This document shows, piece after piece, positions 5,953-61,412 of a stretch of DNA of 64,000 bases (its first letter is position 1; the number at the start of each line of letters is the position of its first letter). The notes beneath the pieces were generated by a model. That model was not told the DNA's origin and did not search any database. It was given only the letters and a program-made list of their open reading frames with translations. Where the stretch lies: positions 4,404,001 through 4,468,000 of the forward strand of contig CM119371.1 in the NCBI GenBank assembly GCA_051294905.1, in the 5' to 3' direction. The stretch is from Botryllus schlosseri (lineage: Eukaryota). The position numbers and the translations under genes were made by a program.

Positions 5953-5963
5953 GTCGAGCTCTG

Positions 5964-20640: not shown

Positions 20641-23600
20641 CGCTAAAAACTTTTACACGTGTAAAATTTATTTCATCTATAATATGGGTTATTTCATATA
20701 TTACTGTCAACTATTTATCCGTACTTAGCACACGTGATCGATTAAGCGATAGAGCTGCTGGAGGGGGTGTCGACGACAATTTTTGGCGCAATATGAATGA
20801 TGATGTATCTTCCGGTTTAGTAATCACTTTGTAGCATGTTGTTATTTTTTAACCTTCCGTCAGGATTGTAGGCATACAGGCACACGATTCCGCCTTGGTA
20901 TTTCTGTATGGGGTGCATCATTTTCCTTGACGGTTTTCATTTGTTCGGTGGGACTAAGATTGCACTATTATACATAAAATCCGAAATATACCGGCCTCCT
21001 GAATCGCACCAAGCGTGAATAAAATTTTCAAGTTTGAAATCTCTCAAAGATTTGGGAGCCTATTCGTTGATTCAAATTGCATATTGACGGACGCCAAAAC
21101 ACGCTATAATTCAATTAATATATCGGGGCCGCATAAATATTGTTTATCGGCTCCACGCAACCGTAGGTAGTATATGTGATCGGTGGCGAACCAGCGTTGT
21201 GGCTTATGGGCCCGCAGGTGACCGGCCGCGAAACTCGTGTTGGTGACCCCACCCGTTAGACCCCCCTATCGCTGGTGAGCTGCCTTTTTTCTGGTGACAC
21301 CACCCTTTCAGGCATAGCGCTCGTTGGTGACCTGCCGTGAAAACTCGTGTTGGTGACCCCACCCTTTGCGACCCCCTATCGCTGGTGACCAGCCGCATCG
21401 TTAGTGATACCACGCCTACAGGTATTGGCTGTAGCGATGACCTGTCGTTCTTATGGCTGCGATCGTGAACTAATGTTTATTCAAAACGGTGTGAAATGGT
21501 TTGCTAAATCTAGGAATCGCTCACATGGTAACATTTTGGCAATTAAGTGGTCATAGAGCCGGCGTAGCCGGCGATTTAAACACTAACAATAGCTGCGCTC
21601 GCAAACTATCACTTCAAATAGGTGTGAAATAATTGTAAAATCCTACAATCACTGACAAGATAACACCTCAGACATAGCCATCTCTCGTGACTTGCTGTTA
21701 CAGAGGTAGGAATCACTCACAAGTAATATTTTGGTAATTAGTTTGTCGCGTAACTGGATTTCACGGGCGAGATATCATAGGAATAATAACTATTAAGTAA
21801 TAGCGACGAATAACAGAACCGTCGCAGATGGCGATCCGGAAACCAACAATTTGACACTTTCCGACGATCGCTATGTCAGTGTTTTCACACCTTTGGAATA
21901 GTGGTTGACTTTAGTTGTGTGATAAGAATCATGAGAATATTCAATCAATGTAATAATTTGTCAATCTGAAATGAAACTCACTGCACAACTCGGGTTGATT
22001 CGTATCTGAATGTGTTAACTCGGCGCAACTCTATTCCTTCGAGATATCCTTTAACGCGATCTGTTGATTTGAACGTAACCCGAATATTACTGACTTCGAA
22101 TTTCAGCTGCATCGGCTTATTCACACGCTCCCACACCGCTGTTTCATACCTATAGAATCAATACCAACTATCTCAACAAGAATCAAGAATCACGATTATG
22201 CACATTGCGCATTATACAATCATTGTATTTATTACTGCGAAATCAAACTCTTAACAAAAACACTCATCTTAGCATTTACCAACTCTACCATCACCAGAAA
22301 ATTAAGGTATTGTTGATTGAAAATTCGCGAGTCCTTATTATCAAAAATGTTATAGTACGGGAATAGGAATCCATTCGCGAAATGTACTATAGGTAAATCG
22401 AGATAAACCGAAACGAACTATTTTGACTTTGCCATAGTGTGAATTGAAATAGCTTTGACAAACATGACTACCAACTTTCAACCCAGTTACATTTCGAGAT
22501 TATACACATATTGATTTGAAACAAGTAATGAAACCTTCCAACTCTATTCTCGACCCGGTTTTCCGTTTGTCAAATAGAGTTTCAGTAAATACTATCGCTA
22601 TGGAATCGCGATATTTTAATGTGGTAATACACACAATAGAGTCAATCAATGAAATAATGCCCGTTGTTGTAAACATTTCCAACTTGACAACCGCTTACAC
22701 ATAACGCGATCGAGTTGCAATGCGATGAGTTGAATTGGAATCGGAATATTTCAACCTACTTTGTCACATCGCGATTTGAAGTAGGATTGTCAGACATGAT
22801 CACAAACTTTCCCTCAGTTACATTTCAGATTACTTTATTCACACGATCACCATCTCGCTGTCTTCACACTTACACAACCGCCCATTGTTCCCACTCGCAA
22901 TATATTTCCGAATGAAAATGGTTTGTTACTCTAGGAAAAAACATATTTCCGAACCAAAATGGATTGTTAATCTAGGAAACGGCAACGGGAAGGAACCTCT
23001 TGTGCATAGTATTGCAACAGTGAAGATATTCTGTCACGTGGTGAAACAAGATCGTTGCTCAACTGTGAATGACGTATTGCGAACACCGAGTTGCTGTTAA
23101 AGAGAGAAGAGCCTACAGTAAGACCATTCTGTATGCTTCGATTAAAACCACAACGAAGACCAGTTATGAATGGATTCGAAGCAGTTCAACCTTTGTTGTA
23201 TTTAGTCAATTCGAGCCAATTTTAATACAAGTCTCCAGGTATGACTCACACACTGACACCGTAAACGGAAGTCGATGATTGTGATATAGAATAATAAAAA
23301 TATTTCTCAAGTACGTGTTCAACTAAATCGGAATTTTGATGTTGTAGAAAGTGAATAATTTGATCGAGTTGTGTGTCTGATGAAAGTGAGTGGTTACAAG
23401 TATGTTTTGACGTTAGGGAAAGAAAATTTATTTTCTGTGTCTGACAGTTAGTGACAAAATGAAAATAGATTCGTGGTTTTAATTGGATTGTGATTAAGCT
23501 GTTCAAATGTATGGCTCAACACGAAGACTTTACGCTGAACAACAATTCGACAAAACATATCCTCTGCACAATTTGTCACTGGTGTGTAAAGAGTTAGGAA

Positions 23601-24074
23601 AAATTTTAATACAGTTCCATCTACCATTTGTTTTGTTGTGAGGACAACCATGTGATGACTCAGCACTTTTCGTTAGCAAAGTAGATTGTTTTGTGTGTAA
23701 GATTTAAGGGTCGTGTCGGGAAGCATATGTACTCTCTTGTTGGAGTAACTCGATTATTGCTATGACATTAGCAATTTGGCATATCCTTCAATCGTAGTTG
23801 GTTGATGTCTTACGAAAGATGACGCGATCCCGGTGTAATAAATTTTGCTATCCAAACTTTGATAGATGCCGTGGTGGTGTAGGACTTACGCATGCCGGAT
23901 GTAGGGAAATTAAGTACTTGGCCGGCCGGATAGATGAATCTATACATTATTCGCCATTTATCCACATATATAAGGAATAAATCGCATGTAATGACTGTAT
24001 TGCAACGACAGCAATGTCATTTCACTGCCATTTCTCGCCATTTCTGCCAGTACTATGATATCTCAGAGAAGCGA

Positions 24075-25450
24075 AATGTGGGATGTAGCAATTTTCTCGA
24101 CCTAAAAAAGCGTTTGACTGCGTAGATCATAAAATTCTCATCTCGAAATTGGCGCGTTACGGACTTCGGGGCCCACAACTTGAGCTCATGAAAAGTTACC
24201 TCACTGGACGCCAACAAATGGTTGCGATCTCAGACACCTTGTCCTCTCCTCACCCGGTGACCTGTGGTGTGCCCCAGGGCTCAGTACTTGGACCGGTCCT
24301 TTTCACCTTATATGTCAACGACATTTTTGAAACCTCCTCATTGAACACCACACTGTTCGCTGATGATACTCACCTCCTCTCTTCCGCATCTTCGACGGAA
24401 GAGCTGGATGCCCTGACTGGTGACCAAATGCCCAAAGTCCATGAGTGGACGGCCCAGAACAACTTTTGCATAAACGCCTCGAAATCGCAATTGCTGACAG
24501 TTAATTCAAAAAATAACCTAACCGTTAATATCGCTGGTCAGCCCGTTTCCAACACAGATAATGCCAAATATCTCGGAGTTTTACTGGACTCGAACATGTC
24601 CTGGAAGAGTCATATTCAGTCCCTAGAAACTAAATTATCACCGAAGTGCGACCTGTTCTACAGCCTTGGGCGCTTCATGCCAGCATGGGTTCTTCTGATA
24701 CTCTTTAAATCCTTAATCCAATCGAAGTTACATTATGGCATCCTCTGTTGGGGGGCTGCCAGTAAAACTGCACTCAAGCCACTGCAGAAACTACAGCATA
24801 AAGTGCTCCGAATCATAGCTAGGGCCCCAAAGGGTCCTGGCTGCCCATCCAATAAGTCGCTGCTGAAGAGAATCGGCGTCCTAAACATAGAAGATATGCG
24901 GAAACTAGAAATCGCCAAGTTTATGTATCAGTTTCACTGCGGTCGTTGCCCCGAATATTTCAATGACTTCTTTACCTCTGAATCAAAAGCGCACAAGTAC
25001 AACACACGCGCGTCCACGTCGTCCAAATATCATATGATCGACCGAAAAGATCATCGCTCCATCAAATATGCCGGACCTGATGTGTGGAACAGTATCCCGC
25101 CGGCCATCCGACAGTCGACGAGCATGTCCACATTCAAGTCGAAATACAAGCAATTATTACTAAATAAATACAGTCCATCCTCAAGATTACCGGACCACGA
25201 CTGACTTATCGATCTCGCTTCCCATGACATGCCGCCCTATTTCTTGTCGCATTCTTCTTCTATACTATCTTCTTTACTTTCATTCAGTGTGCATGCCTCC
25301 TCTTTACATCGCCTAGGCCAAGGTGGGTGCCAGATTCCATAGACTACTCCTTGTCGCTTCGACATCTTCCTGTCTTTTCATTGTATCGCATTTTTGTGGT
25401 GTATTGAACTGATAAAATTGCTAATAAACCAATGATGATGATGATAATGA
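24075..25450 (+). mobile_element. 5'-truncated CR1/L2-group LINE; RT ORF 24149-25204
   Basis: FLDLKK(AFD), GVPQGSVLGP, LFADD, KYLGV and YG...WG motifs; AATAAA followed by an (ATG)n tail at ~25423-25450. Confidence 0.9.
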
Positions 25451-25925
25451 CGAAGACAATGTGGATCTGAGAATACCATTGTCATACAGGCGCCGACATG
25501 TCTACTTCTCTCTGATCAATCAACACAGGGTGCAATCCTTAATTAAGATTTCAAGGCGTTCGATAAGTCGGCGGCACCTCAAATTTACCAAGATATCAAT
25601 TCATTATATGGTTGAGTCCATCGTAAATGCAGATAATGCAAGTATTCTCGCTTCTACTTACTTACGCGGGTAAGCTCCACTCTCGCACGGTGCGCACACA
25701 CGCAAATAATAACATACGGTCACTATACAATTTGACGTAATAAGCAAGTAGTGAGGAATCTCGACCGAGTAGGGCCGCGGGGGTTCTATACCAATACCGG
25801 GAAAACCATTACCAAGAACGGACATTACCGAGAATGCGTGCGAGAGTAAGGCTTACGCGTAAGTTCGTATAGAAGCGAGAAGACTTGCATGTTCGGTGTG
25901 GTGTTATATTTATCCGTTAGGTGTC

Positions 25926-28900
25926 TGTAACCGCAGAAATTTCAGGCCTAATCTGGGTACACGACGTAGCACTGTCAGCTGTCTTCGCTCCGGTTGAAAC
26001 TTAAACACGCGTCTTCTTGGGTGAAGTACGGTTTTTAATGATCCAAATTCCCAGCGACTATACAACTGACCAAATAATTTATAACAATCCAAATTCTTAA
26101 TACAAACAAATAATACGAATTAAAATAACATGAAAGCCAAATAGAACCCTAAATACGATAATACGCATCCTAAACTAAACGATTTGAGTCAAACAATAAT
26201 ATGCGACCAATACCATGCAGTGCGCCACGTGAAGTGATATATTCGAGGCGCCAAAACCATCATTCATGCGTCATAGAAAGAATCATTGGTCCATTGCGAA
26301 GGTGGAATTCTGCGGCAACACCCTCACCCCCAAAAATGGGAAATTTATTACAATAAATTTATACACATTTTTTCACAGGTGAAACAACAACTTCCCAAAA
26401 CCATGCGAGAAAACAAATACAACAAAGCAACGAATCAATTAAATTGTATTGAGACAAAGTGTCACTCGTGTCACTCATGGCATTGTGACGCAATCAATAA
26501 CGGAAACACGTACTGTAGTAAACAACGAGTGCCGTTGTAAACAATGGGTTCCACAGCAGTAAATAACCATTAACCAAACACCGAGTATTGAAGTTATTGG
26601 ACAAGCGACGTTCTAGTGAATGGATTGATATCATGTTGACGAGCTCTGAATAAGCACCAACTTAGTAATGGGCCTCTCAAGCTCAGAATTTTTTGTTTTG
26701 ATACGAACCGACCTTACCAGGTCGTCTTTGCCAGGAAATAGTTGTGTGACACGGCCCAGAAGCCATGCATTTCGGGGCAGGTTATCGTCCATGATTAGGA
26801 CAATATCATCGATTTTTAGGTTACATTTACCATCAATCCATTTGGGCCGTTTTGCTGGAAGATTTGACATTTGCTGCGACTCTGGCTGTCGCTGCCGTTT
26901 ACGACATATCACGCAATCATATATTATTTTTCTCAATTTGGGCTGAGGGCGCACAATCCAATATTTTTTACGAACCATTCCCAAGACATGCTCACGACCC
27001 GAATGTCCTGATAATCTGTGATGCCATTCAAAAATGGCGGAAGCAATCCTGCTATCTCTTGGCACTACAATCTGGTGTTGATTTTCATAAGCAATGGGGG
27101 CTTCCATTATTCTGCCACCAACCCGCAGTAACCCATTTTCTATAAAAGGCTTCAACCTGTACAAAGTACTTGCAGGTCTGAGATTTTGACCATTTGCAAT
27201 CGCATGCATTTCTGCAGCATAAAATTTAGCTTGCTCATGTTTGATAATTTCTCTTTCCGAACGCAACACTTCATCTGTTGTTAATAGCCCTGCAGGGAGC
27301 GATTCATTACCGCCAGATGTTCCTCTAACCTTAGAGAGCAACCTATCTTTGTATCGTAACACCCAAGCAATCACCTTCTTGAGTTTGAACCAATTACAAT
27401 GTTTTTTTATTGCCTCATCCATGAATTCAATGCCAGGTGTAGGAACATCGCTCACTACAGTTGCAAGACATGTCTTTTCAGTTTTTACTTTATCAATTAC
27501 GTCTGAACACATTTCACAGACACTGTCTGTGCTGACCTTTGTAAAGTTGCAGCTGACGGGCAATTTTCCATTGCCCTTTATTTCACTTCTCTCACACGCC
27601 ACCGCCCAACCAATCAATGTGCGAACGGCATAGAAATCTGCCGGCCCATCAACCACTTCTCTTGGTCGATGAATACTTCTATTATCAAAGCCGATTAACA
27701 ATTCAACATCACAGTCCACATCAGGAATTTCAATTCCATCGAACTCAGGAAAATCTTGGATATCTTCCTGGAGTGGCATTTCATATTTGCCCAAAGGTAT
27801 CTCTTCGGTAGATACCAGCGTTGAAAGGGACACCCAATCATTACCATTATATGCCGATACTTCTACATTGTCAATCAGAGTTTCTGTTTTGTGGGAACCA
27901 ACGCCATTGAGAGTTTTTACAGCCACGCTGACATCCCTACCTTTAGCACTAATTCTTTCCAGCAATGAATGTGTAATGAATGAATTTCTACTTGCTCCAT
28001 CAAGCAACGCTTTGGTGGTAAAAATGTTTCCACCACTGCCGACACGCACTTTTACCGGCAACCCAGGCAATAATGCACCTGCTTCCTTTTGAATACTGCT
28101 AGCAAAACTACTCGTCGTTTTGTCAGATTCCGAATTTTGTTCCGATTTAATCAATTGAATTGGCTTATGACTTTGGGAAGGATTGTTATCAGGTGGATGA
28201 AGTAATGTAGTGTGCTTACCGAAACATTTTGCCTGAGAGCACGGCTTTTTACGATAACATTCTTTACTGAAATGCCCTGCTTGAAGACACGAAAAACACA
28301 GCTTGTTTTGCTGAACAAAATTATGCCTTTGTTCAAAATTCATTGCTCGAAAGATATTGCATTGGTTGAGAAAATGAGTTTGCTTACATTGCGGACAACA
28401 TGATGCAGTTGTACTCTCCATCTGTGTAGCAAAACTGGTTTTGCTTCCTTTAGGATTAACAAACCTTTCGTTACTCAAGGACCAATTTATTTTAGGCTTT
28501 GTTTCCAACTCTCGAGATTTCTTTCGAATGTAATTTGACAAGTCAAGCATGGTCAATTTTTCCCTTTTTACATTCACAATATTATCCACAATGGATCTCC
28601 ATCCACTTCTCCATCCTTCCGGCAATCTATCCTCAACTTTGTCAATTACCATAATGTTGTCAATTTCATGCAAACTATTTGTGCCCATTAAAGTTTCTCT
28701 GCATGAAACCAGTTTCGCCCAAAACATTGCCAAACCATCCCTATCGTTTTCAGAAAAACGAGGACCTCCAAGTATGGACTCGAGGCAACAGCGACTGATT
28801 TGATGTTCTTGCCCATAATTTTCATTCAATATTTTCCATGCCTTATCAAAGCATGAGTGTGAATCAGCATGCAAACAACCTTTGATCAATACATGCGGGA

Positions 28901-30639
28901 CACCCTTTGTATACTTCATTAGATATTGAAGCCTATGTTGTTGTGTTAACGCATATGGCTCTACTAAAGAATTGAAAGCCATTTTAAAATCATAAAAATC
29001 ACTGGCGTTTCCTGTAAAGATGGGAGGTTCCGTGAGGGGTAATAAAGAAGGTTGGGGAACTTGGGCATACATAACCTTGGGCTCCGAATTACTGATATTG
29101 TTTTTAGGAGCAAGGAAACAAGCTTCAGCATTGGCTGGTGTCGAAATAAGAGCAGCGGGTTTAGGTCCCCGTTCATATTTTGGTAACTTAGTAGGTTCAC
29201 TACGGCCCTGCAAACAAGGGCTATCAAAATCAATCAGATCTAGCACCGAGTTAACAGTATTTGAACCCAAAGGTTGCGAACTACCTGGAATGGATGGACA
29301 ATTAAACTGAGGAATGAATTCGATGGCAGTTTCCTGCTTGACTACAGGACTCAGTCTAGTACTAAAAATTGATTGTCGGGTTTCTAGGGACTGAGGAACA
29401 AAAGGAATTTGAACGTCGGTGCGATTCATACCTGAAACATTAACAGTAGGAAGCTCAAAACCAAGCACCTTTCTCTCTGCGCGAGTTTCCTCAAGCGCAG
29501 ATGCGATTTCGAATTGGTCCCTCTGATGCCTCATACTGAGTTCATCGATCTCTCGTTGTCTAATGCGTCTCAAGGTTTCAACCTCGGACTTGTTTTCCCG
29601 TTCGAGTTCTTCTGCTTCGAGCTTTTGCTGTCGAGCAATTTCTTCCCGTCTTGATTTAATCTTTTCAAGCATTTCTTCTTCTTCACGATGATGCCGCAAC
29701 ATGAGTTGCTGTTTTTCCAGAATATGACGTTGTGAGGATGAAGCAGATCTGGCCTCCAGAACCGCTTCTTGTTGCATCAATGTCATACCCACATCTGAGG
29801 TAGACATTGTTGAGCCTGAGCCATGTGATTGAGTAACATGACTTTTTGATTTAATACTCGATCGACTGCCAACCTTTGCCTTTGATCTGGTAGTCATCAT
29901 ATGTAGATTGTCTTTGGTTAGCAATGCACTTTTGGCGCTTCTTTTCACATGACGCGAAACCATGCCAGCAGACACACAACTCGAACTTGTTCTAGTCTTT
30001 GTTTTGTTCAAGTTGTTTTTTGGCTGTGCTGCAGCTCCTATCGCGCCATAAGCTTTGGCTTGCGTTGCTAATTGTTGAATCGGGCCTTCCATATTATCTT
30101 CGGATAACACCAGGGCGTCAATTCCACGTTGATTTGATGCTAGTTGATTGGAGACCGCAACATCTTTCAACAGCTCCATTATGAAATATCCTTTGTCGTT
30201 TAGTGCAACGTTTCGTTTGATGCGATGTGATCATTAAAAACTTGTGTAACCGCAGAAATTTCAGGCCTAATCTGGGTACACGACGTAGCACTGTCAGCTG
30301 TCTTCGCTCCGGTTGAAACTTAAACACGCGTCTTCTTGGGTGAAGTACGGTTTTTAATGATCCAAATTCCCAGCGACTATACAACTGACCAAATAATTTA
30401 TAACAATCCAAATTCTTAATACAAACAAATAATACGAATTAAAATAACATGAAAGCCAAATAGAACCCTAAATACGATAATACGCATCCTAAACTAAACG
30501 ATTTGAGTCAAACAATAATATGCGACCAATACCATGCAGTGCGCCACGTGAAGTGATATATTCGAGGCGCCAAAACCATCATTCATGCGTCATAGAAAGA
30601 ATCATTGGTCCATTGCGAAGGTGGAATTCTGCGGCAACA
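25926..30639 (-). mobile_element. BEL/Pao LTR retrotransposon, internally deleted
   Basis: Apparently identical 395-bp LTRs (25926-26320, 30245-30639), TGT..ACA ends, 5-bp TSD GTGTC, PPT GGGGGTGAGGG. Confidence 0.95.
26631..30179 (-). CDS. BEL/Pao gag-protease-partial integrase polyprotein (1182 aa), lacking RT/RNase H and the integrase DDE core
   Basis: Three Cys/His knuckles (CPQCKQTH..C, CFSC...GH..EC, C...C.GKH..LLH), ALLDGAS protease motif, LRVGGR, HHCC, C-terminal W..GR....PG.D..VR.V...RPITKL. Confidence 0.9.
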   Translation of the reverse strand: MELLKDVAVSNQLASNQRGIDALVLSEDNMEGPIQQLATQAKAYGAIGAAAQPKNNLNKTKTRTSSSCVSAGMVSRHVKRSAKSALLTKDNLHMMTTRSKAKVGSRSSIKSKSHVTQSHGSGSTMSTSDVGMTLMQQEAVLEARSASSSQRHILEKQQLMLRHHREEEEMLEKIKSRREEIARQQKLEAEELERENKSEVETLRRIRQREIDELSMRHQRDQFEIASALEETRAERKVLGFELPTVNVSGMNRTDVQIPFVPQSLETRQSIFSTRLSPVVKQETAIEFIPQFNCPSIPGSSQPLGSNTVNSVLDLIDFDSPCLQGRSEPTKLPKYERGPKPAALISTPANAEACFLAPKNNISNSEPKVMYAQVPQPSLLPLTEPPIFTGNASDFYDFKMAFNSLVEPYALTQQHRLQYLMKYTKGVPHVLIKGCLHADSHSCFDKAWKILNENYGQEHQISRCCLESILGGPRFSENDRDGLAMFWAKLVSCRETLMGTNSLHEIDNIMVIDKVEDRLPEGWRSGWRSIVDNIVNVKREKLTMLDLSNYIRKKSRELETKPKINWSLSNERFVNPKGSKTSFATQMESTTASCCPQCKQTHFLNQCNIFRAMNFEQRHNFVQQNKLCFSCLQAGHFSKECYRKKPCSQAKCFGKHTTLLHPPDNNPSQSHKPIQLIKSEQNSESDKTTSSFASSIQKEAGALLPGLPVKVRVGSGGNIFTTKALLDGASRNSFITHSLLERISAKGRDVSVAVKTLNGVGSHKTETLIDNVEVSAYNGNDWVSLSTLVSTEEIPLGKYEMPLQEDIQDFPEFDGIEIPDVDCDVELLIGFDNRSIHRPREVVDGPADFYAVRTLIGWAVACERSEIKGNGKLPVSCNFTKVSTDSVCEMCSDVIDKVKTEKTCLATVVSDVPTPGIEFMDEAIKKHCNWFKLKKVIAWVLRYKDRLLSKVRGTSGGNESLPAGLLTTDEVLRSEREIIKHEQAKFYAAEMHAIANGQNLRPASTLYRLKPFIENGLLRVGGRIMEAPIAYENQHQIVVPRDSRIASAIFEWHHRLSGHSGREHVLGMVRKKYWIVRPQPKLRKIIYDCVICRKRQRQPESQQMSNLPAKRPKWIDGKCNLKIDDIVLIMDDNLPRNAWLLGRVTQLFPGKDDLVRSVRIKTKNSELERPITKLVLIQSSST

Positions 30640-30883
30640 GTGTCTACCTTCTCTTCATTTCCGCTAGTAATTATTTCGTGCGTTTGTCTATCTGTTAGTT
30701 CATCATTCTGGTGTAGGGCGTTCTGAGAGTAGCATGTGTTTCCTGATTAACTTCTGTTTTAACGTTTATATTCTTTGTAGCATAGTCTACACTTTTAGTG
30801 AATAAAAGCCTAGAAAGCCGTATATCTATTGGTGGGTTTTCCTCGCAAGCTCACAACAATTTTATTCACTAAATCTGAAGATC

Positions 30884-39100: not shown

Positions 39101-39375
39101 TATCAACTCTGAATCGATAAACCAATGAACAATATTCAAAGTAAACATGTTACACCCTGTGTTTCCACGAAAAAATACCATCCAGACATACGTCGCGCTT
39201 GTTTGCCCGCACCAGTATACGCGCGCGCAAATGGAGGTGTGTGACATTGCATGCAATGTGTTGGTATACAAACATCGATCCACAGACATTATCATAGCCG
39301 GTAGTTTTGATGTAGATCGAATGTCACCCGATAACAATGTCATACCAATAAGCCACATTGCAATGACTCTGAGTC
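33151..39375 (+). repeat. Left arm of the 6225-bp inverted repeat
   Basis: Mirrored ORF track; paired coordinates sum to 79677 throughout; about six substitutions seen by eye. Confidence 0.98.
36200..38050 (+). pseudogene. Heavily decayed protein-primed family B DNA polymerase (pPolB); mirror copy ~41630-43480 on the minus strand
   Basis: Manual translation gives motif ghosts in the expected order: VVDLRSIFC..L..HTGV; SEWL......IQH...TVYEYH..QHNC; ASGYVHV; YGYPH; HVVLWFSSGHTAR...LSVVQLLGNR...SCFVT. Confidence 0.65.
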
Positions 39376-39400
39376 AATCTGAAGCATGACATACGGACAC
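38780..39400 (+). pseudogene. Possible decayed Polinton rve integrase
   Basis: QYTLVH..ARF, GNPDKV...LNR and YKHRST resemble YTLHKP..RF, GRKP.KLQTD..EFLNR and YHRSI. Confidence 0.4.
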
Positions 39401-39578
39401 ACAAACATAGAAACCGTAACATGGGTATTCGCACGACGGTGAAAGTGAACTATACAGCATATACCAATAGAGTGTTCACAGTCAAATATGCGAACCGTGC
39501 ACAATCATATACCCAGGTTTTTGCTGGATATGTACGAAACCAATAAATCGATACATTTCTTTTCTCTGGACATCAATA

Positions 39579-40250: not shown

Positions 40251-40301
40251 AACCATCGAGTAAATCAGTGAACGGTATCGAAATATCGATGTAATAGCGC
40301 G

Positions 40302-46300: not shown

Positions 46301-46526
46301 CGCCTATAGTAAAAAAGGCGAGTCACCAACACGAGTTTTCGCGGCGAGTCACCGACGCAGCCTATAGCAAAAAAGGCGAATCACGGCCGCACCCATAAGA
46401 ACACATGGCGAATCACCAGCGGAAGGGGGGGTCGAAAAGGGCGAATCACCAACACGAGTTTCGCGGCGAGTCACCAGCGGGCCCATAAGAACCCCTGCCA
46501 CCTCACGACCGATCTACATAACTACT
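40302..46526 (-). repeat. Right arm of the 6225-bp inverted repeat
   Basis: Reverse complement of 33151-39375. Confidence 0.98.
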
Positions 46527-47955: not shown

Positions 47956-48462
47956 CTTCAGTACAGTGGCCCGATCATTTTAGGCTGGGGAGATTGTGGT
48001 GTTATATTTATCCGTTAGGTGTCTACCTTCTCTTCATTTCCGCTAGTAATTATTTCGTGCGTTTGTCTATCTGTTAGTTCATCATTCTGGTGTAGGGCGT
48101 TCTGAGAGTAGCATGTGTTTCCTGATTAACTTCTGTTTTAACGTTTATATTCTTTGTAGCATAGTCTACACTTTTAGTGAATAAAAGCCTAGAAAGCCGT
48201 ATATCTATTGGTGGGTTTTCCTCGCAAGGTCACAACATTCGGCATTTGCGATGTACTCAACCCTAATGAATTGATATATTATTAAATTTGGGGTACCGGC
48301 ACCGGGCTTATCGAGCGCCTTGAATCTTACATACTGAGAAGGCGTTGTCGAGAAATTACATCTGAGAATCGACTCCGAATGTGGCATAACCGTCATGCAC
48401 TTGTATACGACCTGTATATATGAATAAGATGCCTGCATTGCATGCGTTGCATTATCGGTAAT

Positions 48463-50475: not shown

Positions 50476-51962
50476 ATTATCGGTAATGTCGATTCTCGGT
50501 GGTGTCATTCTCGGTAATGGTTTTCTCGGTATTGACCGGACAGGGTCCGGCGGGCCACGTTATCAACTAAGACGGGAAACTGTCCGCGGGCCGGACAAAA
50601 TCCTGTCGCGGGCCGTACGTTGCCCGCCCCTGGTTTAGATGATGACAATTATTCTAGAAGGTTCAAATCGGTGATGTATTATCACTACTATGAACAACAA
50701 TACAAACACATTTTTGTAGATTTCAGTGTAGCGTGTATTTCGATTTCTTTAATATTATGGGTTTTGTGTGTTGGATAAGTCTAATTGAATCGGAGGTGTC
50801 TAGCAAAAATATACCAATTAGTTTTTTTTTTAATGATCAAAGTGTTAGAGTGTGAACAGAGTTTAACACGGTTTAAATGATGGCTCGAATTCTAAAGTGA
50901 TATTTTCGTACTGTGTAATGTGCGTGTGTTTCAATTAGCTGTCGCGGATTCTGACAATAAAGCATTGTACCGGTGGTTGATCAGCAAACGAAATTGTTGT
51001 TTCATCTTTAGTCTTGGTTACTGGAAACGCCCCAATGCGTAGACGCCGTAGAGTGATTTATACCAACATGGAATAATTTTCCAATCAAGAACATTTCAGA
51101 CACGCTAATCTAGTTTTACAACTCCATATGTTAATAACAATGATCCTGAAAATTTTGTTGATATCGCAATAACCAACACCGGTCCAATTACGTCATAATT
51201 TAATAACCAAGTCATGATCGAATATTACAAACGCTCGTATGTCAAACCAATGTGAAGGATGTTTACAACATGATAACTTTCATGTAACACCAGCGTTCGA
51301 TTGTGAGAAATGAATTCTCAACTACGTTGGTCAGACAATCAAAGCTCGTATACCAAAAGCATAATATGTTATTCTCAAGTCGCACACCAAGTAATAATTA
51401 GTTTTTCTTACAGAATATACCGCATAGTAATGACTTTGTCTTATATAATAGACCGCGTCGTAATTTTTTCATCTTACAGAATAGTAACAACTTTTAAAGT
51501 TGAATAAGGAGGGGGGGCACAAACACGAGTTTCGTGGCGGGTCACCAGCAGACATGGGGTAATTGTGATTAGTAATCGTAATCGACTGCGACGATCACAG
51601 CATTTCCAAGTAATCCTAATCGCAATCGATTACATTCGAAAAAAATCTGAAGTAATCGTAATCGATTATTTCACATATCTAATCGATTTCTTGGTGAAAG
51701 AACGATTACTTTTCATTTGAAGAATGACTGAAACTGAACAAGGAAGAGTGCCATGTTATACCATGTTATTGCTAGGAGATGTCGGCTTTTTAAGCCCCGC
51801 TGCTCATTATCACGTCACAAGCATTAGCTTTGCTCGTCGATGATTACGTAACGAATTATACACACATAGTAAATAGATATTCGATGTATATGTAGTCGTG
51901 TGATTCTAAGAGTCGTCGGCATGCCGTATATCAGGTTATTAATATACTCCAGACATCTAACA

Positions 51963-54900
51963 CAGGCCTGGGCAACGCGGCCCGTGGAGCGATTCTGTGC
52001 GGCCCGCCAAAGATTGCTTGAAATTTAAAATATAAAACCTACTTTATAATGTTGCTGCCTGTAAAGTAAAGTCAATGTATCAAATTATGCCGTTAGAATT
52101 AAAGTCACAAGAAGTCACCAAAACTTCTTTGTTGCCATTGTCACATTACGCATTACACGGTCTGTGTTTCAAATTGTACGTGATGTGTATCCAAATCCCT
52201 AATTCGTAAAACAAGTGAATCAGTGCTCATCATTTCGATGAATATATCACCACCCATAAAGGATGTCAAAAAAAAGAAAGCCAAAGTTGAAATTCAATGA
52301 TGGCTAATAACTGCAACCTTGGCTAAACAACGAGGCCTTTTCGGCAAGCTGCACAGTGCACAGTGCCAACGTCTCGGAAACCAGCTACCAAGACAATAAG
52401 CTAGGCTATATATTACCCTCAGGGCCGTAACACCCGTACCCCAAACCCCCCAATTGGATGGCGAGCTCGACGGGCGCCCAAAATCATTTTGTTAATGAAC
52501 ATAAATTATAGGGTATTATTTTAAAAATTTATGCAACTTCATTCAAAGTTTTTTCGCACTCGGCGCGATTTAGTGATCAATTGTTTTTACAATTGGACAT
52601 TTCGGCGTTAGCCATTACCGCGCCACGAAGCACCAAAATAAATCAACTTTAGGCCAACACGGGATTCCGAAACTGCTGATCAAATTAACTAAGTAAAAGG
52701 AAAAAAGCTCGTCGGCGAGAAAACCTTGGTCGAAAAGGACTGCCCTTATGTTGACCGAAAACCAATTGTCCATAGGCAATATTTGCCAGTGAAGAAATAG
52801 GCTACTAATCAGGAATCGAGTGCGTCTTTTTAGTTTGGTACGTTTCGGTGATTTCAATATCTTTTCACATAGCAGACGAAAGGTCACGAAATAACAACAT
52901 GTAGCGAAGTAATTATACCAACGGGTCATCTCAGAAATTAAAAAATATAGCAATATGCAATTACCAATATTATTGACCGATTATATCATGAATCGTGAAA
53001 CAATTCTGCGCTTCGCGCGATTAGGGCATAAACGTTGCCGATTAGTGTATACAAGACATCTCGTGCATCGTGGGTGCAACTCTATGGAAGGCCCAAGACC
53101 ATCGCTTGGGGGAGATGACGACGGGTTGTTTCGGTCATTCCAAATACATTTTATTGTATTGATAAAAAAAACGCGGAGAACGGGATTAAAGAGACTGTGA
53201 AATGTACCATGTTCAACATTGTTTCAAAATATGACAGCAAATAAATATGTGTTGGGTAATTGACCGTCACTTTGTCATTCCCCAACATCAACACATCCAC
53301 TGAGCACCAATTCGTGTAATTCACTGCTCCAAATTTAGAAATATAATTAATACGCTGGATATTCTAAAATTTTTGACTCGGCCCGCCAACATATTTCTGC
53401 TTTTCATTTGGCCCGCTGAGAAAACTACCCAGCTAGCACGCCCACTTGGTATCCAGGTGGAATTTAAGTGGTTAGGTGGGATGGATGATCGGAATGGGTT
53501 AGTAACATGTAACCCACATCGAAACCAAGCGGGATTTCCATCCACAAAGATGCGTGGTTATACCATACCAATCCCAGGTAGATTGCAATAAGTCTCTTCT
53601 AATTGTACCTATCAATTTGAACTCGGGGGAGTTTTACTTGTTGAGTTTTTGATATCAAATCATCTTGAAACATGAGAAATCCACTTATGGAGGAGCTCAG
53701 ATTTCCCATATATCACCCACACCGGAACCAACCTTATTTTCCATCAATGATATTTGGTTTATTTCATCGAATAATAAAGGTGGTTCCATATGTAGTAAAG
53801 TTTTCTAGCTATTATGCTATCCCTGTTGGTTGCTCGAACCTCGAACATTAAAACCCCTACCATGCTTTACTTCGTGAATGTGATTTGAACTATTTAAAAT
53901 TGACCGGTTGTCACACTGAAGTGAACTTAAATTTCCGTTGCTAGAGTACTCACAGCGTGCGGTATAATTTTCTTGCGTAGATCCCATTACCTTTATCCCT
54001 TATCTGTATCTATTATTTTTAACTCAGGATTAATTTTACTAGTAAAATTTCTGTGATCAAATAATTGGAACTTGTTATTTTCGTCAATGAAGAATGGTCG
54101 ACTTTTCATACGGCTCCCACATGTGACCGAGTAGTTTTCCGAAATAGATGCTTCTTTTATATTTTCCTACAGCAAGGTTTGTTCATCTATATAGTAAAGT
54201 CATATTATAATCGGTTTCCGATTGATTCATTTGCGATGCTGGTCGCTGGGACATTTCCCAATTGAATTCCACCACCATATGAATTGAATTCGGGTACTGT
54301 TGACGATAAGCGCCTAAGAATCGGGCGGCCTCGGTTCGACTCCCGTTGGAGGTTTGTCCGGGCTCCTCTTCTTGCGACATGAGACCCGAGAATGACTCGA
54401 CGAAAGAATGCACTCACAAGTTATGGAAATCGCTAGCAAGGGCCGTGGCCTCGAAAATGATCAACATCGAGAGTAACTGTGACGGCGGGCACTCTAAGCC
54501 GAGGTAGATGTCAGTCTAAAAGACGGCAACTGCGCGTCGGTCGGCATCCTCCTATCTGTTCATGACATCGCTTTGTATCTTATCGCATTGTACATTGTGT
54601 GTGTCTTGTTCAGCTGAAAATATAACTCAACGATTACACTTAAACAGTGATGATGGCCTCACTCACCCACCGTAAAGGTTATTATATACTCAGCTTACCG
54701 TATATATTGTTTGGTTGCGTGAGTGTTGGTAGCAGGTATGTACTGTACAGTATACGATGTTAAAGTTAACTAACGTGTAGGATTTACCTAATGTCGCCTT
54801 AGCACATGTCTACGTCGAATTCTCGGCCCACTTACACTGTCACTGCTACTGCCACAAGGACCGAGGTCGTAATATTGTCTTCGCTATCAGCTTGGTGGGT

Positions 54901-55054
54901 TACCCACATGGTTCCCCAGAAAATACCTCTGTAATATGGGGCCAAAAATGTACGGTTCCCGATTGGTTTCACCAGCTGGTTACCACAATTCATCTCACTT
55001 TGATACCTTGTGGTTCCCAAGTAGGCGTGCTACCTGGGTAATTGCCCACCCCTG
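51963..55054. mobile_element. Non-autonomous hAT (Charlie-like) element
   Basis: CAGGCCTGGGCAAC...TTGCCCACCCCTG; perfect 8-bp TSD ATCTAACA. Confidence 0.85.
53428..55038. mobile_element. Non-autonomous DNA transposon with 2-bp (TA) TSD, EnSpm/CACTA-like CCCAG ends
   Basis: CCCAGCTAGCACGCCCACTTGG...CCAAGTAGGCGTGCTACCTGGG flanked by TA; sits 16 bp inside the end of the hAT element. Confidence 0.75.
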
Positions 55055-57357
55055 ATCTAACAGCATAATAATAACCACCACTCTGCCTAGTTTTAAATAG
55101 TAACGTTTCTATGTTCGGTTATGCAGTTTTACGGTTGAGTATAAGCCTATGATTGCGTTCACTGGACAAAGATTTGAAATTCGTTACAAATCAACGACTG
55201 TTGATATACATCATGACCGGGTTGTTCTTTGCTGTTGCGAGTAAAAGGCAGTTCGCATTATATGTGTTAAATGGATTGTAGGCAATATGCATGCGTAAAT
55301 GCTTGTGTTCATCGTTCAACTGCGAGAAATAATATGCAATATTGCAGAATTTTATGTTCACTTTATCTTATATATTCTAATATGCCCCTACCTAAAAAGG
55401 CACCAATCGGTATTTCGCAATTCTTTACCGGGGCCTACGTATGCCCTGTCTTTACTCGACATTTGAATCTGCCGTTATTGCCATTCGCCGTTATAGCCAT
55501 AGCCACACCATACTAGCTTGCGTAGTAGCTAGAATCAGGACCGAAACAGCAGCCCCCGTAGGGTGATCAATCAAACGTCTGGGGGCGATCCCTTCAATAC
55601 CTCTGTTTTACGATCGACCTTGCCACAACAACTGAAAGACACGATTGAGTCAATATGCATTCGGTGTGTAATCAACAATTATAACATCTTCGGATGGGTC
55701 CGTTGATATTATTACTTTGTTGCATGTACGGTTGCATTTAAAACAAAAATCAATTTAAACGAGGCAGTTTCGCTTCATAACTAGTAAAACCCCAGAGCTC
55801 GAATCAACAGAATGGCCGTCTGAGATGGAATATCCTACTGTGCAGACTCATTTTAATTGCTAAATGGTCAATAGCCTACTGATACAAACATTTTCCTGTT
55901 TGATGGTATGTTGGAGATTGTTGAAAAAATGGATGAGAAAGGTCAATCGCGGTGAATTCGAAATATTTACAAAAATCCATTTTCTCCTGTGATATACATA
56001 ACCATGTTTTCAATAATAACTTAAAGACAAGCTGCTAGATAGCCTATAACTGACCAGGCTTGTCGTTTTATGTTCATTATAAAAAAAATGTTTGTCGATT
56101 TTGCTGTCATATTTGTTGCTATCATACACGAATGTGTCGACGGAAGCGTTACGCGTTAGTAATTCATTCGCCGCCACCTATATTTGTGTAAATGGATTTT
56201 CGGCACTCGTTCATATCAAATCGAAGGAGCGTATTTTCAAGACACGACCACGTATTTCAAGAAATGCAGTTGCAGAAATCGTTTTGAAATATAAGAAGTC
56301 AACCCAATTTTTACAGGAATAGTGTGGTCTTATATTCAAGAAAAGTCATTTTCTCGCTGTTTATCCTCAAGCCTATACAGTTATCATATGCACGAGTCGC
56401 AGATAACCATTGTACGATAATTGAGCTAAATTTGAACTGAAAATTCATGGGGGTCCGCGGCTTCCGTGACGGTTCGAAAGGGGTCCGCGAAGACAAAAAG
56501 GTTGAGAACCACTGATTTAAACAAACGTTTAAAACAAGGGCCATGTTTTAAACATGTTTTTTTTGTTGTTTTTTTTGCCATGACGTTACTAATATTTAAT
56601 TATGACGTCGCAGTGGATTGACGTTTGCAATTGAAAATATAGACATGACTCTTTCGACGAAAACGGCTTTCGGCCACTGTCATAAACAAACTAAAAATAT
56701 ATTTAACGCGGTCTTCACCGTTATGCAGCATTTTTACGGTCGGCGGTAATCATCATCAGAACACCAATTCCGTACCAATGATCAATATCTACATGCTAAA
56801 ACTGTTGCACCGACAACGATTTTGAGGGTTCCAGCCTTCCCACATCGTATAGCCTATACATAGACTATTATGGGTGAAAACCGACCGTGGGCTCATACTA
56901 CATGGTCTTTCCGACGTAGGCCTATTTACACACTTACGGTATAATTAGACAACGTTTGAAAAAAAAACAGTTTTTTTAAAGGCATTTGTTTAAAACATTA
57001 TTTAAACAAACTGTTTTAAAACACCGTTTATTTTAAGTGCAACCCTAGTCGCATGTTGTTAACTGGCGATCTCCCGCCTAGTCAAAAGATATTGTAGTCG
57101 AACAAACGTTGCAGACTAAATTGAACGAAAAACATTACGTGAGACGCATACACAAATTGTTCTTTCTTCACGGGATGTATCATTTTCCTCTATGGGTACA
57201 CCGGGTGGCATTGTACTGCGGGGCTTATGTTAGGATAGGACTATTCGTCGCGCCGATTCAGCGCAGCAATGGACAATGGACACTGGACAGTGAACACATA
57301 TGCATGGACGTTTCGGCCAAGATCTTTCTTTGGTAGCACATGTTGGTCATACCTCTG

Positions 57358-57749
57358 TATATTATTATTATATTCTTTATTCACAGTGAAACTGGTAGAT
57401 ACACACATAATCCGGGGAGCAACTTGCCCCCAAAGGAAAATGGCGAGATTGGTCTAAATATTTTAGAATTTCAGTAATACTTTCAAATTGTTATTCCTAT
57501 GCAATACACGGAGAAGTCAGATTACAGAATTGCAGCAGATGAAGAATTGGCAAGGGTCACAGAGCAGAGGTAGAGATGATTGAAGATGAACAATCTAAAT
57601 TACAGAAATTATGCTGTGATTCACAAGTGTAATTTTAGTCCAGTGTTGCATTCAAGGCCTTCCGAAGAATGATGCACAGTGCCCAATAATGTTATCTTTC
57701 GGATCATGTCGAATCGAACGTTACCCGGAATTTGTTGGATATGTCTCAT
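57358..57749 (-). mobile_element. Second short 3' fragment of the same R4/Dong-like family, in tandem
   Basis: Diverged direct copy of 57750-58137, ending in ATTATTATTA. Confidence 0.88.
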
Positions 57750-59460
57750 ATTATTATTTTCTTTATTCACAGTAAGAAACTGGTCAATACACACATAATA
57801 CGGGGAGCAAACTGCACCCAAAAGAAAATGGCGAGATCGGAGTAAATTTTTTAAAATTTCAGTAATGCAGTCAAATTGTTATTCCTATGCAATACATGGA
57901 GAAGTCAGATTACAGAATTGCAGTAGATGAAGAATTGGCAAGGGTTACAGAGCAGAGGTAGAGATGATTGAAAATGAAGAATCGAAATTACAGAAATGAT
58001 GCTGTGATTCACTAGTATAATTTTAGTCCAGTGGTGCATTCAACGCCTTCCGAAGAATATGCACAGTGCCCAATAACGTGATCTTTTGGATCATGTCGAA
58101 TCGAACGTTACCCGGAATCTGTCGGATATGTCTCATGAGTTTTTTGCTTACGACCCCTGTAGCGCCAATGACTATCGGTACAATGTTTATTTTGCATTGC
58201 CACATTTTCTCACATTCCATTTTGAGGTCTGCGTATTTGGACTGCTTTTCTGATTCTTTTTGTTGTATATTGTGATCAGCTGGGACAGCCAGTTCAATGA
58301 ACAAGCATTCTCTTTTCATTTTTAGTTTGATGATCATATCCGGGCGGTTCTGATTTCGCGGTCCGTTATAACTGGTACATCCCACAGAATTTTTACCTGG
58401 TCGTTTTTTGTCACTGGGGCTGGGCTGTAATCGTACCAAGTTTTTGTCGAAGTGGTGATGTTAAAATGTTTGCATAATTCAAGATGAATGTAGTGACCAA
58501 TCCTATTGTGTCTCCATGTGTATTCGGTAGCTGCAAGTGCACCACAGCCGGACATGAGATGTGCCACAGTTTCATTTTGGTTGTGGCACATTCTGCATTT
58601 GCCATCCGTGTTTTGCTTCAGAATTCTTTTGCGATAGTATTTTGTAGGAAGCGATTGGTGTTGTGCTGCGAAAATGAATCCTTCGCTTGCCGGTTTCAGA
58701 CCAGAGCTGGATAGCCAGGTCCATGAAAGCTCATCTACATGGGGCTGTGAAGTTAACTTCTTGTGCTGTCCATGAAGAGGCATTGACTCCCATATCGTTT
58801 CTCTCATTTTGGGCGTTGCATTTTTGTATCGAAATCGTGCTGCTTTTGCTATTGTTGTGGGTTTGGCAACAGTGTTTTCAGCAGTGTACAGGTTAGCTGT
58901 TTCTATGTTGACTTCTCTGACATACTTGTCGTGACGATAGCTCAGAGATTTTGTTTTGCGCTGTTTGTCTTCCTGTGCAATGAGTTTGCAGTGAATGTTA
59001 TCGCTGTTGTTGATGTACTGTGACAAGCCAATGATTTCTGTTTTGAAAGTTTGTTCAATTTCTTGTAGTCCTTGACCACCTTTTTTGTGGGGATGTACAG
59101 TCTTTGAGTATCAGATTTTGGGTGATGCATGTGGTGCATTGTCATCAGTTTTCTCGTCTTTGTGTCCAATTTTTTAATTTCATCTTTGCGCCAGTTCACC
59201 ACACCAAAGCTATATCTCAAGACAGGCACTGCAAGACTGTTTATGGCATTGATTTTGTTTTTGGAATTGAGTTCAGTTTTGAGAATTGATTTGAGCCTGC
59301 TAATGTATTCTTTTTTTAGACTTGATTTCATTGCAGCATGTTTAATGTTGTCGCTTTCACAGATCCCTAGATATTTATAGTGATCTTCAGCATTCAATTC
59401 TGTTATGGTTTCGTCCATTTTAAAGTTCATGTCGCCAGTGCTGGTGGCTCTTCCACGTCG
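57750..59460 (-). mobile_element. 5'-truncated R4/Dong-like non-LTR retrotransposon with restriction-like endonuclease (frameshifted)
   Basis: YKYLG, AIN..AVPVL.Y, CRMC...ET..HL.SGC, RHN and RPD..I....C.FIE.AVP...K..KY..L motifs; (TAA)n-like tail. Confidence 0.9.
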
Positions 59461-59464
59461 TACA

Positions 59465-60670
59465 AATATGAGTGATGCTTTTCGCCATTTATGGCCTTGT
59501 GCGCCACGGTCATCAGGAAATTCAAATCAACCAGTAACTAAATGAACTTATTACAACTTATCACAAACTCGGCGACGGCGGTGGACAATTGCGATGACGA
59601 GAGTAGGTTGCGTATGGTGAACGGCATATGTAACTGATTGCAATAGGTTATTAAAAACGATCGATGAAAGTCGTATTTAATGCATGATATTAAAAAGTGT
59701 TCGACTGTTTCGATGACATCGCATTCTTCGCACATTGGAGATTCCGAGCAGCCGATTCTGAATAAATGGGATGCTACTCCACAGTGTCCTGACCGTAGTC
59801 AAAATATCAGGCGTTCGATATGGCGACTGCCGTTTTTCTCGGGTCCTGATGTGAGTGTGCTGTGGAATTGCTTGTAGTGTGATCCACGTTCATCGGCAGA
59901 GTATTCGCATTGCCAGATCTCCTTGGTAACTCTCTTCATCGCGGCTTTGGCGTCTGGCATGGTAATGATTGGAGTATGGCTCGATCGATCTTGCGTTGAC
60001 GAGCCTACTCGGGCTAATTCGTCTGCCTTTTCGTTGCCTGGAATTCCTGCGTGTCCCGGAACCCAAGAAAATTCAACAGTGATAGCAGTATCATGGATGT
60101 GTTTAAATATTTCCAATATGGATACAATCACGTTATTTGATGGTCGGTTCAGAGGTCTAGAAACCGCCGTTACTGCGGATAGGCAATCTGAGAAGATGAC
60201 GTAACTCTGGTTTCGCGTGCCGTGGTCGAGTACCCAAAATAATGCATGCTGAAGCGCCTTCAATTCCATTGTAAAGGCTGATGATATCGGTGAGCAGGTA
60301 CGAGAGATTGCGATATCATGTACAGTAATATATAGCCTACCCCGTAACCAGCGTTATTGGAATTTTTGGAACCGTCTGTGTAGATTGCCACACTGCCCCC
60401 ATCTCGTTCAAACATGAAATCTAGGCATATGGATTTGATGTTTTCCAGTATTTCGCATTTCGAAGTGTATTTGAGTAGATCCAGGTCTGCGGCGGGGATC
60501 GGTATTGTCCATCGGGGTGTGGTTCACCACTGTTGTGTCTCAACAGTCACGCTGTCGAGAATATGCGATCGTGAAATGATGTCAAAAGTTTTAAAATTCG
60601 GTTTTGTGATGCAGTATATTTCATACGTCTGTATATGTGTTGGTGTCGTGACGCGGTAGTGGTCGGCACC
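59465..60670 (-). mobile_element. I-group (I/Nimb-like) LINE 3' fragment with RNase H
   Basis: IYTDGSK (~60370-60390), ELKAL..AL, IFSDCLSA, WVPGHAGIPGNEKADELAR and C-terminal CEEC...ETVEHFL..C. Confidence 0.88.
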
Positions 60671-61412
60671 GAAATGTCGATATCTATAAATTATGCATAT
60701 TATTTTCTTGATGGGGAAGGGTATGCAAATGAATATCAAGATATCTAGCGACATGAAATCGCGAAGGGTGAGGAAAATTTTCAAGCTAAATTAATCGTTC
60801 AAAAACACTTTATAACTTATTTTGATTTACGAAATAATTTGGTCCTCTTTGAGCTCGCCCCCCACCGAATAAGGGGGTTTGGTGTGCGGCAGTTATGGTC
60901 CTTTTTAGAGTGCAAATCGTTGGGTCTGAGAAATCGTCATCTATAAAGTTATGTAATGGTATATAGTGACGTAACAAGCGAATGACGTCGCATTTTAGAA
61001 CGAAATTGTTCTCTCATGAGGCCTTTTCATCGCAAGTTATATGGTCTTCCAATACGTCTTCAAAAATAAATAGAAAAAGTAAATGGAATCGTGAGTAATC
61101 GTGATTACTTTTCAAATGTAATCGTAATCGTAATCGACTACTTCACGATTTTGCTGTAATCGTAATCGTAATCGCGTGATACCGAAGTAATCGTAATCGC
61201 AATCGATTACATTCATAAAGTAATCACCCCATGTCTGGTCACCAGCGGGCCCATAAGAAACAATTGTACACCACCAGCGATCATATATACTACTACGGTA
61301 TGTCTGCAGGTTGGCCGCCTCTGGCCTGTTGAAATAAGGATGAACAATGCTGCAACGTTTTTGAAATGCTAAATACTAATCAGGGCACGAGGATCCAGAC
61401 CACCATCTAGTA

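Follow-up and report, generated by a model that had tools for sequence, protein, structure and literature searches.

A relic, most likely of a worn Maverick-type element, around a nest of younger transposable elements in Botryllus schlosseri

The window analysed here, 64,000 nucleotides of Botryllus schlosseri contig CM119371.1, contains an old relic in three pieces (21166-23894, 50635-51548 and 61246-61294; 3,692 bp in all) set around younger DNA. The nested block (23895-50634) comprises a LINE fragment at about 24040-25442, a palindromic MITE (25544-25896 and 48243-48329), a Gypsy element (25897-48237; target-site duplication, TSD, TTCGG) carrying both a BEL/Pao element (25926-30639; TSD GTGTC) and a young palindrome, a minus-strand LINE (48463-50475; TSD ATTATCGGTAAT) and a lone hAT-MITE-like end (50570-50632) that lacks its partner. 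The young palindrome (33151-46526; AGTAGT...ACTACT, TSD AACGTT), hereafter the central element and employed as a reference throughout, interrupts the RNase H of the Gypsy and is made up of 6,225-bp arms, with 6 mismatches between them, and a loop at 39376-40301. An atlas search with its open reading frame at 40298-40639 yielded a best score of 0.80 (recognition 989) and no lead.

At its left end and in the adjoining subterminal part (21166-22579, plus strand), the relic matches the arm of the central element from position 1 to about 1540. Against this terminal ~1.54 kb of the arm, 21177-22176 is 79.7% and 22368-22579 is 85.7% identical, with 22175-22367 having no counterpart in the central copy. 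The left terminus, GGTAGT at 21166-21171, is one change from AGTAGT and in register with the other ends; the right terminus, ACTACT at 61289-61294, is exact. Since the separation from terminus to GGTGAC is 57 bases in all three ends, 21166 is taken as the terminal base. A BLAST suggestion of a terminus at 21165 with an inserted G was ruled out, the ends being in register from 21166. Candidate TSD copies, ACCGTA (21160-21165) and ACGGTA (61295-61300), both read on the plus strand, agree at five of six positions, as the earlier note had proposed. A match of this quality has a chance of 0.0053-0.0055 (~0.5%) assuming no target preference; such a preference could raise that level, and the central TSD AACGTT matches ACCGTA at 4/6.

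Two further parts of the relic match the interior of the right arm of the central element on the plus strand. The first (22899-23894) corresponds to central 41354-41481 and 41625-42418: 22899-22984 matches the 41-bp repeats of the former and 22977-23894 the latter, at 73.0% identity. The second (50635-51507) corresponds to 43546-43949 and 44641-44840: 50635-51030 matches the former at 72.1% and 51247-51507 the latter, the sub-stretch 51296-51507 reaching 77.6%, with the intervening 51031-51246 unmatched, at shuffle level against the central element. These matches keep the order of the right arm, as originally reported, and its direction, though with holes, central 42418-43546 and 44840-46443 having no counterparts in the relic. 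The inner part of the right end (51505-51548, plus strand) is joined to the interior over the second of these gaps (~1.6 kb) with a 3-base overlap near 51507, and the outer part (61246-61294, plus strand) completes the terminus.

Overall, the pieces follow the 13.4-kb central palindrome in order at 72-86% identity. The local scores of the relic blocks (784, 395, 148 and 98) lie far above the shuffle maxima of 42-48, and four of four control stretches stayed at shuffle level in the same comparison. In arm coordinates the relic keeps positions 1-1577 of the left arm and 1-84, 1687-1886, 2578-2981, 4109-4902 and 5046-5173 of the right. This is a subset of a palindrome, with almost nothing in two copies. 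The only inverted repeat that still pairs is the terminal ~90 bp, 78-85% alike and split by an insertion; an ancestral terminal inverted repeat (TIR) of about 1.5 kb, as first suggested, is not borne out, and because only this ~90-bp TIR is present the relic cannot measure the ancestral length.

The insertion in question splits the right end at 51548/61246 and is a 9.7-kb hAT-like composite (51549-61237) with an 8-bp TSD, GTCACCAG, at 51541-51548 and 61238-61245. Its two ends agree in 15 of their 16 terminal bases, and it holds LINE-type pieces at 58023-60353. Non-autonomous hAT elements make 8-bp duplications and have short TIRs starting CAG. The insertion resembles them in its duplication and in its short ends starting CAG, and differs in its 9.7 kb of mixed content and in that no transposase was found: the scan covered 51549-60353 and gave no protein family in six frames of 51549-58050 and only zf-RVT and RNase H in the four open reading frames at 58023-60353. 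The split agrees with the earlier description, and the hAT label is drawn from the ends only.

That an older, related element with a putative, degraded 6-bp duplication encloses the nest is upheld by colinear blocks on both sides, and we consider it very probable that it is a single old insertion. Two separate insertions, or a chimera produced by deletion or recombination of neighbouring copies of the same subfamily, seem quite unlikely to us. The family is abundant by contig cover, but the blocks flanking the nest are of like identity (73.0% on the left, 72.1% on the right), share one order and orientation and do not overlap. Although the flanks agree imperfectly and the two ends are only 78-85% alike, five of six bases would rarely agree by chance without target preference, and one changed base among the six is in keeping with ends that have drifted 15-22% apart. 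The ends of the relic are also nearer to one another (46 of 54 columns) than either is to the central end (42/56 and 45/56), and they share features that set them apart from the central copy. The single insertion requires two changes at the left end, A to G in the terminus and one in the duplication. An empty site, 21165 joined to 61301, was not seen in the loose ends and contig records listed (24 of 2,497 and 24 of 37,726, respectively), and the interior block stands unbracketed beside the partnerless hAT-MITE-like end. Continuity from left to right is putative, because no duplication brackets 23895-50634 and a 1.1-kb part of the central layout has no counterpart at that place. The stretches 23851-23940 and 50591-50690 have no common 8-mer, and shorter matches between them lie away from the ends of homology.

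The remaining stretch, 22580-22898 (plus strand), is subfamily-specific and consists in part of degraded repeats of 22426-22502, of which it holds a direct copy (77%, E 5e-10). Against the central copy it scores 55, compared to a shuffle maximum of 37, and contig cover over it is heavy in three runs (X1, X2 and X5). It is repeated subterminal family DNA and not unique left-end sequence. The statement that 21166 to about 22580 matches the terminal ~1.5 kb of the arm and then diverges is therefore sound as to the match, the divergence being true against this single central copy only. Summed contig depth over 22606-22939, a figure distinct from copy number, is 8,500-39,700 in X1, X2 and X5, the first two of which are one sample, possibly the source of the assembly. 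The contig records include nearer relatives than the central copy, with identities of 87-96%, one of them reaching a depth of 145 in X2. No intact palindrome with 22580-22898 in both arms was seen, a point against the reading we prefer below.

At 22899-22900 (plus strand) the subterminal repeats pass into the 41-bp repeats that lie in the right arm close to the loop, and ~6.6 kb of the central layout is absent at this putative deletion joint. Contigs of X5, and of that run alone among the joints listed (there being 135 further joints), depart at 22900 and re-enter a 22498-like repeat, at depths of 4,337, 84 and 80. The jump in the relic is crossed without differences by a single X2 contig, whose depth of 9.86 is in line with the 9.9-16.3 of the other zero-difference X2 records among those listed. 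Being bridged at about single-copy depth, 22899 has the appearance of a local deletion joint. Because depth is also low at 22940-23440, part of the drop after 22939 may be due to copies too divergent to pass the 88% cut-off.

These data bear on whether the relic was ever palindromic. The 'non-palindromic layout' described previously is correct today; as an original state it does not follow, since a palindrome minus its centre and one subterminal block gives an equal map. It is conceivable, though unlikely, that the relic goes back to a single old insertion of a non-palindromic progenitor with a unique interior between two long TIRs, that palindromes derive from its right part by copy-back and that the right TIR block alone was lost later. 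Such a history saves one large deletion, and clear likeness to the central arm does end near 22579, but the supposedly unique stretch that follows is subterminal repeat DNA; contigs of other copies run past 22900 into a further subterminal unit, not the 41-bp repeats, and the contig that spans the jump has about single-copy depth. A ~1.5-kb TIR would come close to the upper limit of the 46-1,447 bp given for vertebrates in the available text of PMC8097293, and TIRs of ~2 kb appear in that of a report on butterfly polintons (10.1101/2025.02.07.637071); the ~90 bp of the relic, however, is no gauge of its ancestral TIR, and the Maverick genes or traces expected of a progenitor were not found. 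The contig data favour a local deletion joint at 22899 over a progenitor layout. It is very unlikely that the deletions preceded insertion and that a short element of ~4-5 kb with ~90-bp TIRs was itself mobile: both termini, a requirement for integration, are retained and the relic has almost no duplicated part, yet the 22899 joint is bridged at about single-copy depth and no multi-copy contig crosses it among those listed. More broadly, it seems improbable that the giant palindromic Maverick-ended elements of this genome arose by copy-back from a form preserved in the relic, be it a gene-less progenitor without a palindrome or a short mobile element with ~90-bp TIRs.

The coding content was assessed in 24 frames. 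A pPolB-like ghost had been reported on the reverse strand; the peptide, RLFSL*QQLGVR, is indeed present on the minus strand near 23081-23116, whereas its likeness to pPolB fails every test. There were no Pfam families at E up to 1 in 22 of the 24 frames and one unrelated match, far below cut-off, in each of the other two; no polymerase family was found, nor any trace of integrase, packaging ATPase, protease or capsid genes. The frame with the peptide had no matches at E 0.001 among 1.84 billion proteins, and none of five family B polymerase motifs occurred in 18 frames. Mismatches in this block are distributed 15/11/17 by codon position, without clear periodicity. On the Pfam frames, the protein search and the missing motifs the ghost is rejected, although a very old coding origin of the block is conceivable. 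The longest open stretch in the relic is 106 codons, and stops make up 4.8-6.5% per frame of the left piece. As to expression, one RNA run placed 161 reads, 92% of them running on into unlike sequence, and the end pattern had no matches in viral contigs or in metagenome contigs. The assignment to the Polinton family is sustained by end motif and footprint, and not by the defining genes, none of which is present.

Most likely, then, the relic is a worn, gene-less Maverick-type element whose mirror halves were mostly lost through later deletions; it encodes nothing and is most likely an unremarkable fossil that does not document the ancestor of the family. More specifically, we favour as probable a single insertion of a copy, since deleted in its centre and arm, from a sister subfamily of the central element's palindromic family. 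A Maverick-type integrase supplied in trans would have integrated it, leaving the 6-bp duplication. The long inverted repeat, being unstable, would then have suffered two deletions. The central one, with its joint at 22899, would have taken the loop together with most of the left arm and ~1 kb of the right, and the other, with its joint at 51507, the ~1.6-kb right subterminal block, after which only ~90 bp could still pair. To judge by their footprints, LINEs, the MITE, the Gypsy in the MITE, and the BEL and young palindrome in the Gypsy subsequently piled in, as did the hAT-like element into the right end. The relic is older than the central palindrome because of the nesting order, and its ends have drifted 15-22% apart, compared to 0.1% between the arms of the young copy. 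The proposal that the family was active over a long period is borne out for two widely separated times.

The relic thereby dates the family in relative terms: its members were already inserting before the MITE, the Gypsy and the young palindrome arrived at this site, and they did so in more than one subfamily. It is also one example of palindrome decay, nearly every inverted segment being down to one copy, and as such is helpful to a family-wide study, not surprising. A progenitor layout, if true, would fix the direction of change, with gene loss before fold-back, and would matter more because the origin of palindromic elements could then be ordered.

In titles and abstract openings, covering few subscription journals and no supplements, we found no description of palindromic Maverick derivatives or of their decay, which does not prove absence. 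The central element shares with the relic its end motif, subterminal repeats, 41-bp repeats and arm interior, in the same order; the relic differs in being another subfamily, at 72-86% identity only, in having no loop, in its inverted repeat of ~90 bp rather than 6.2 kb, and in being old and riddled with insertions. Intact vertebrate Mavericks, in the available text of Barreat and Katzourakis (2021; PMC8097293), have ends 5'-(AGT)2//(ACT)2-3', TIRs within the range given above and sizes of 12.7-24.6 kb, and 96% of vertebrate Maverick copies are defective. The relic resembles the gene-less or degraded copies in its end motif (right exact, left one change), its candidate 6-bp duplication (5/6), a residual TIR inside the range and a coding capacity lost as in most copies. 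In contrast to Mavericks as described there, its pieces total 3.7 kb and show no trace of the pPolB, integrase, ATPase, protease or capsid genes, and its interior corresponds to the arm of a palindrome poor in genes rather than to any known gene module. Long palindromes usually lose symmetry through deletions, according to the available text of PMC8701086, and in the mouse transgene palindrome treated there most of the asymmetric deletions are small ones located where the arms meet without a spacer, spacers being stabilising. Deletions in the relic are kilobases long, its parent probably had a 0.9-kb spacer, and the putative cause is drawn from one locus; like the mouse palindrome, it would have lost its symmetry by deletion and reached a stable, non-pairing end state.

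The window is repeat-rich eukaryotic DNA with a G+C content of about 40% and a CpG observed/expected ratio of 1.10-1.25, as also in the relic and the arm of the central element; CpG depletion is absent even from the old repeats. The central element (33151-46526), employed as the reference for the older, Maverick-ended relic, is a young 13.4-kb palindrome with Maverick-type ends (starting AGTAGT and finishing ACTACT), flanked on both sides by AACGTT, a 6-bp duplication; it breaks a Gypsy pol within its RNase H region. Its 6,225-bp arms have 6 differing positions, its loop spans 39376-40301, and 39300-46526 contains no Pfam family. The relic pieces, which sum to 3,692 bp, were each aligned to it separately. 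On the left, 21177-22176 and 22368-22579 track the central arm from its terminus (identity in ungapped columns 79.7% and 85.7%), 22899-22984 aligns to 41-bp repeats at 41354-41481, and 22977-23894 to 41625-42418 (73.0%). On the right, 50635-51030 aligns to 43546-43949 (72.1%), 51247-51507 to 44641-44840 (77.6% within 51296-51507), 51518-51549 to 46447-46478 and 61238-61294 to the final 57 bases, with a jump from central 44840 to about 46443 showing a 3-base overlap. Against 20-40 shuffles per stretch, seven of eight relic stretches exceed their own shuffle maximum, the exception being 51031-51246, and none of four control stretches does so. The homology proposed in an earlier note is thus borne out; overall, its observation is partly confirmed and its interpretation partly supported.

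The relic flanks, ACCGTA and ACGGTA, are identical at 5/6 positions, a match with a chance of 0.55% among random 6-mers of the window. Since 57 bases separate the terminus from a common GGTGAC at all ends, the boundary was not picked to fit the flanks. The suggested 6-bp target site duplication with one mismatch is to this extent a candidate; no empty site of the relic occurs among the contig records listed. The relic's outer ends are alike at 46/54 aligned columns (6 gap columns), and match the central end at 42/56 and 45/56; over the inner 46-48 bases all three pairs are about equally alike (78-80%). One flank mismatch in six fits such drift of the ends, and the flank argument for a single insertion would be weaker if target preference existed. 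Relic blocks on either side of the nest of younger DNA (23895-50634) are colinear and equally diverged. Counting against a single insertion, no duplication brackets 23895-50634 as a whole, central 42418-43546 has no counterpart in the relic and 50570-50632 is a hAT-MITE-like end without its opposite end, so that a deletion probably crossed the nest boundary. We consider it very probable that the relic is one insertion.

The right end is cut by a further insertion at 51549-61237, with duplication GTCACCAG and ends identical at 15/16 bases. The split noted earlier is upheld; the hAT label is presumptive, given for traits typical of such elements, and six frames of 51549-58050 contain no Pfam family. 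Within this insertion, ORFs at 58023-60353 are LINE-like and 57363-58136 is a tandem duplication (~387 bp, 91%). To the right of the relic lies a 198-bp direct repeat (62149-63345, 93%); the left flank of the relic is itself repeat DNA. Copies of a dispersed repeat, broken by later insertions, occur at 7148-11652, 19781-20641 and 52422-52928.

Inside the nest, a Gypsy element (25897-48237; duplication TTCGG; LTRs identical at 218/219 positions in the compared part) is inserted in a palindromic MITE, the two arms of which are alike at 75/87 positions. The Gypsy pol holds the central palindrome, and the Gypsy 5' LTR houses a reverse-strand BEL/Pao-type element (25926-30639) with identical 395-bp LTRs; the 1,199-codon frame of the latter matched DUF1759, DUF5641 and an integrase zinc finger and no reverse transcriptase family, so the element may be internally deleted. 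Copies of a 12-bp duplication, at 48451 and 50476, flank a reverse-strand LINE. A LINE fragment at 24040-25442 is inserted in another repeat, intact elsewhere, as indicated by a loose contig end at 24039 in sequencing run X1; by eye, that end resembles sequence from about 25443 onward. The relic, if a single element, is the oldest layer of the nest, and the long activity proposed for the family holds as a relative order of insertions, from nesting. Elsewhere, 213-5964 is a further Gypsy-like element, on the reverse strand, whose disrupted frames retain parts of reverse transcriptase, RNase H and integrase, and 13407-14876, also reverse-strand, is an NLR-type exon with a 489-codon open frame encoding NACHT and NOD2 winged-helix domains. 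This exon has the nest on its 5' side, and the nest may be intronic to the gene concerned or upstream of it.

An ancestral TIR of about 1.5 kb, as previously envisaged, is not upheld. The relic's own inverted repeat is about 90 bp (21160-21223 with 61299-61237, and 21217-21258 with 51546-51505), with no longer inverted match between its left and right ends; given this and the right-end jump, the 1.5 kb rests on where likeness to one central copy ends. Divergence after 22580 is real relative to that copy, but 22580-22898 is not unique DNA: it contains a 77% copy of 22426-22502, scores 55 against the central element (shuffle maximum 37) and shows faint similarity, in register, to 34687-34727 (E 0.022), though a local alignment did not reach into it. 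Public runs for the species include single-cell RNA libraries; contigs of three DNA runs from two samples and two studies (X1 and X2 being one sample, which may be the source of the assembly) were placed at 88% likeness. Among the contigs listed, summed depths, which do not equate to copy number, are 8,500-39,700 over 22606-22939 in the three runs and drop to 269, 269 and 1,030 over 22940-23106, a fall that may partly reflect divergence. Listed contigs of the third run, X5, part from the window at 22900 and rejoin a 22498-like unit (depths 4,337, 84 and 80); the intervening letters resemble 22741-22775 by eye. One listed X2 contig (22848-23149, 0 differences, depth 9.86) spans the 22899 jump, which is therefore real in that sample, near single-copy depth. 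Contigs of all three runs omit about 204 bp at 21518-21723, and subterminal repeat-unit number varies among family copies, as between relic and central copy. Relatives nearer than the central copy exist, since records listed include some at 87-96% identity to the relic (e.g. 23121-23380, 26/262 differences, depth 145). Even so, the end of likeness at 22580 is a subfamily difference rather than a TIR boundary, and the parent subfamily's subterminal region extends beyond 1.73 kb.

Counted from the terminus, the arm positions retained are 1-1577 on the left and 1-84, 1687-1886, 2578-2981, 4109-4902 and 5046-5173 on the right; to judge from the alignments, they form a subset of a palindrome with almost nothing kept twice. 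In the simplest history, going by the ends and footprint, a palindromic copy would have been integrated by a helper's integrase, losing first its centre and then the remaining paired block, before other elements came to fill it, as seen in the nest. The converse, a non-palindromic progenitor, shares a long-TIR intermediate with this scheme and differs only in direction; a single locus lacks the power to settle direction, the contig data favour a derived, deleted state, and we consider that progenitor unlikely. Relic-type DNA is highly repeated in the contigs, and the relic is what deletion has left of an old, gene-less member of an abundant family with Maverick ends.

The peptide previously read as a pPolB ghost exists in the relic, and the central copy has RLLSVVQLLGNR at that place. 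Six-frame Pfam scans of both relic interiors and 39300-46526, with stops as X, found no family for 22 of 24 frames; each of the other two had a single unrelated hit, far below cut-off. The 332-residue frame carrying the peptide matched none of 1.84 billion representative proteins at E 0.001, none of five motifs that we take to be those of family-B polymerases appears in 18 frames, and mismatches in the block show no clear codon pattern. A pPolB origin for the peptide RLFSL*QQLGVR is unsupported, though the block could conceivably be a very old coding remnant.

Literature searches by title and abstract start yielded no description of palindromic Maverick derivatives. For a 15.4-kb mouse transgene palindrome, a review reports rearrangement mostly via symmetry-breaking, stabilising deletions (PMC8701086), the loss of symmetry by deletion that we propose for the relic; it also notes that palindromes are stabilised by spacers, which tempers the likeness. 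Intact vertebrate Mavericks carry ends of the form (AGT)2//(ACT)2, duplications of 6 bp, TIRs 46-1,447 bp long and eight genes in 12.7-24.6 kb, 96% of vertebrate copies being defective (PMC8097293), and Polintons are defined by pPolB and integrase (PMC6431247; PMC5499653). The relic has the end features of Mavericks, the 6-bp duplication as a candidate, without the gene features and, by its sequence, would resemble a non-autonomous Maverick derivative rather than a Polinton proper.
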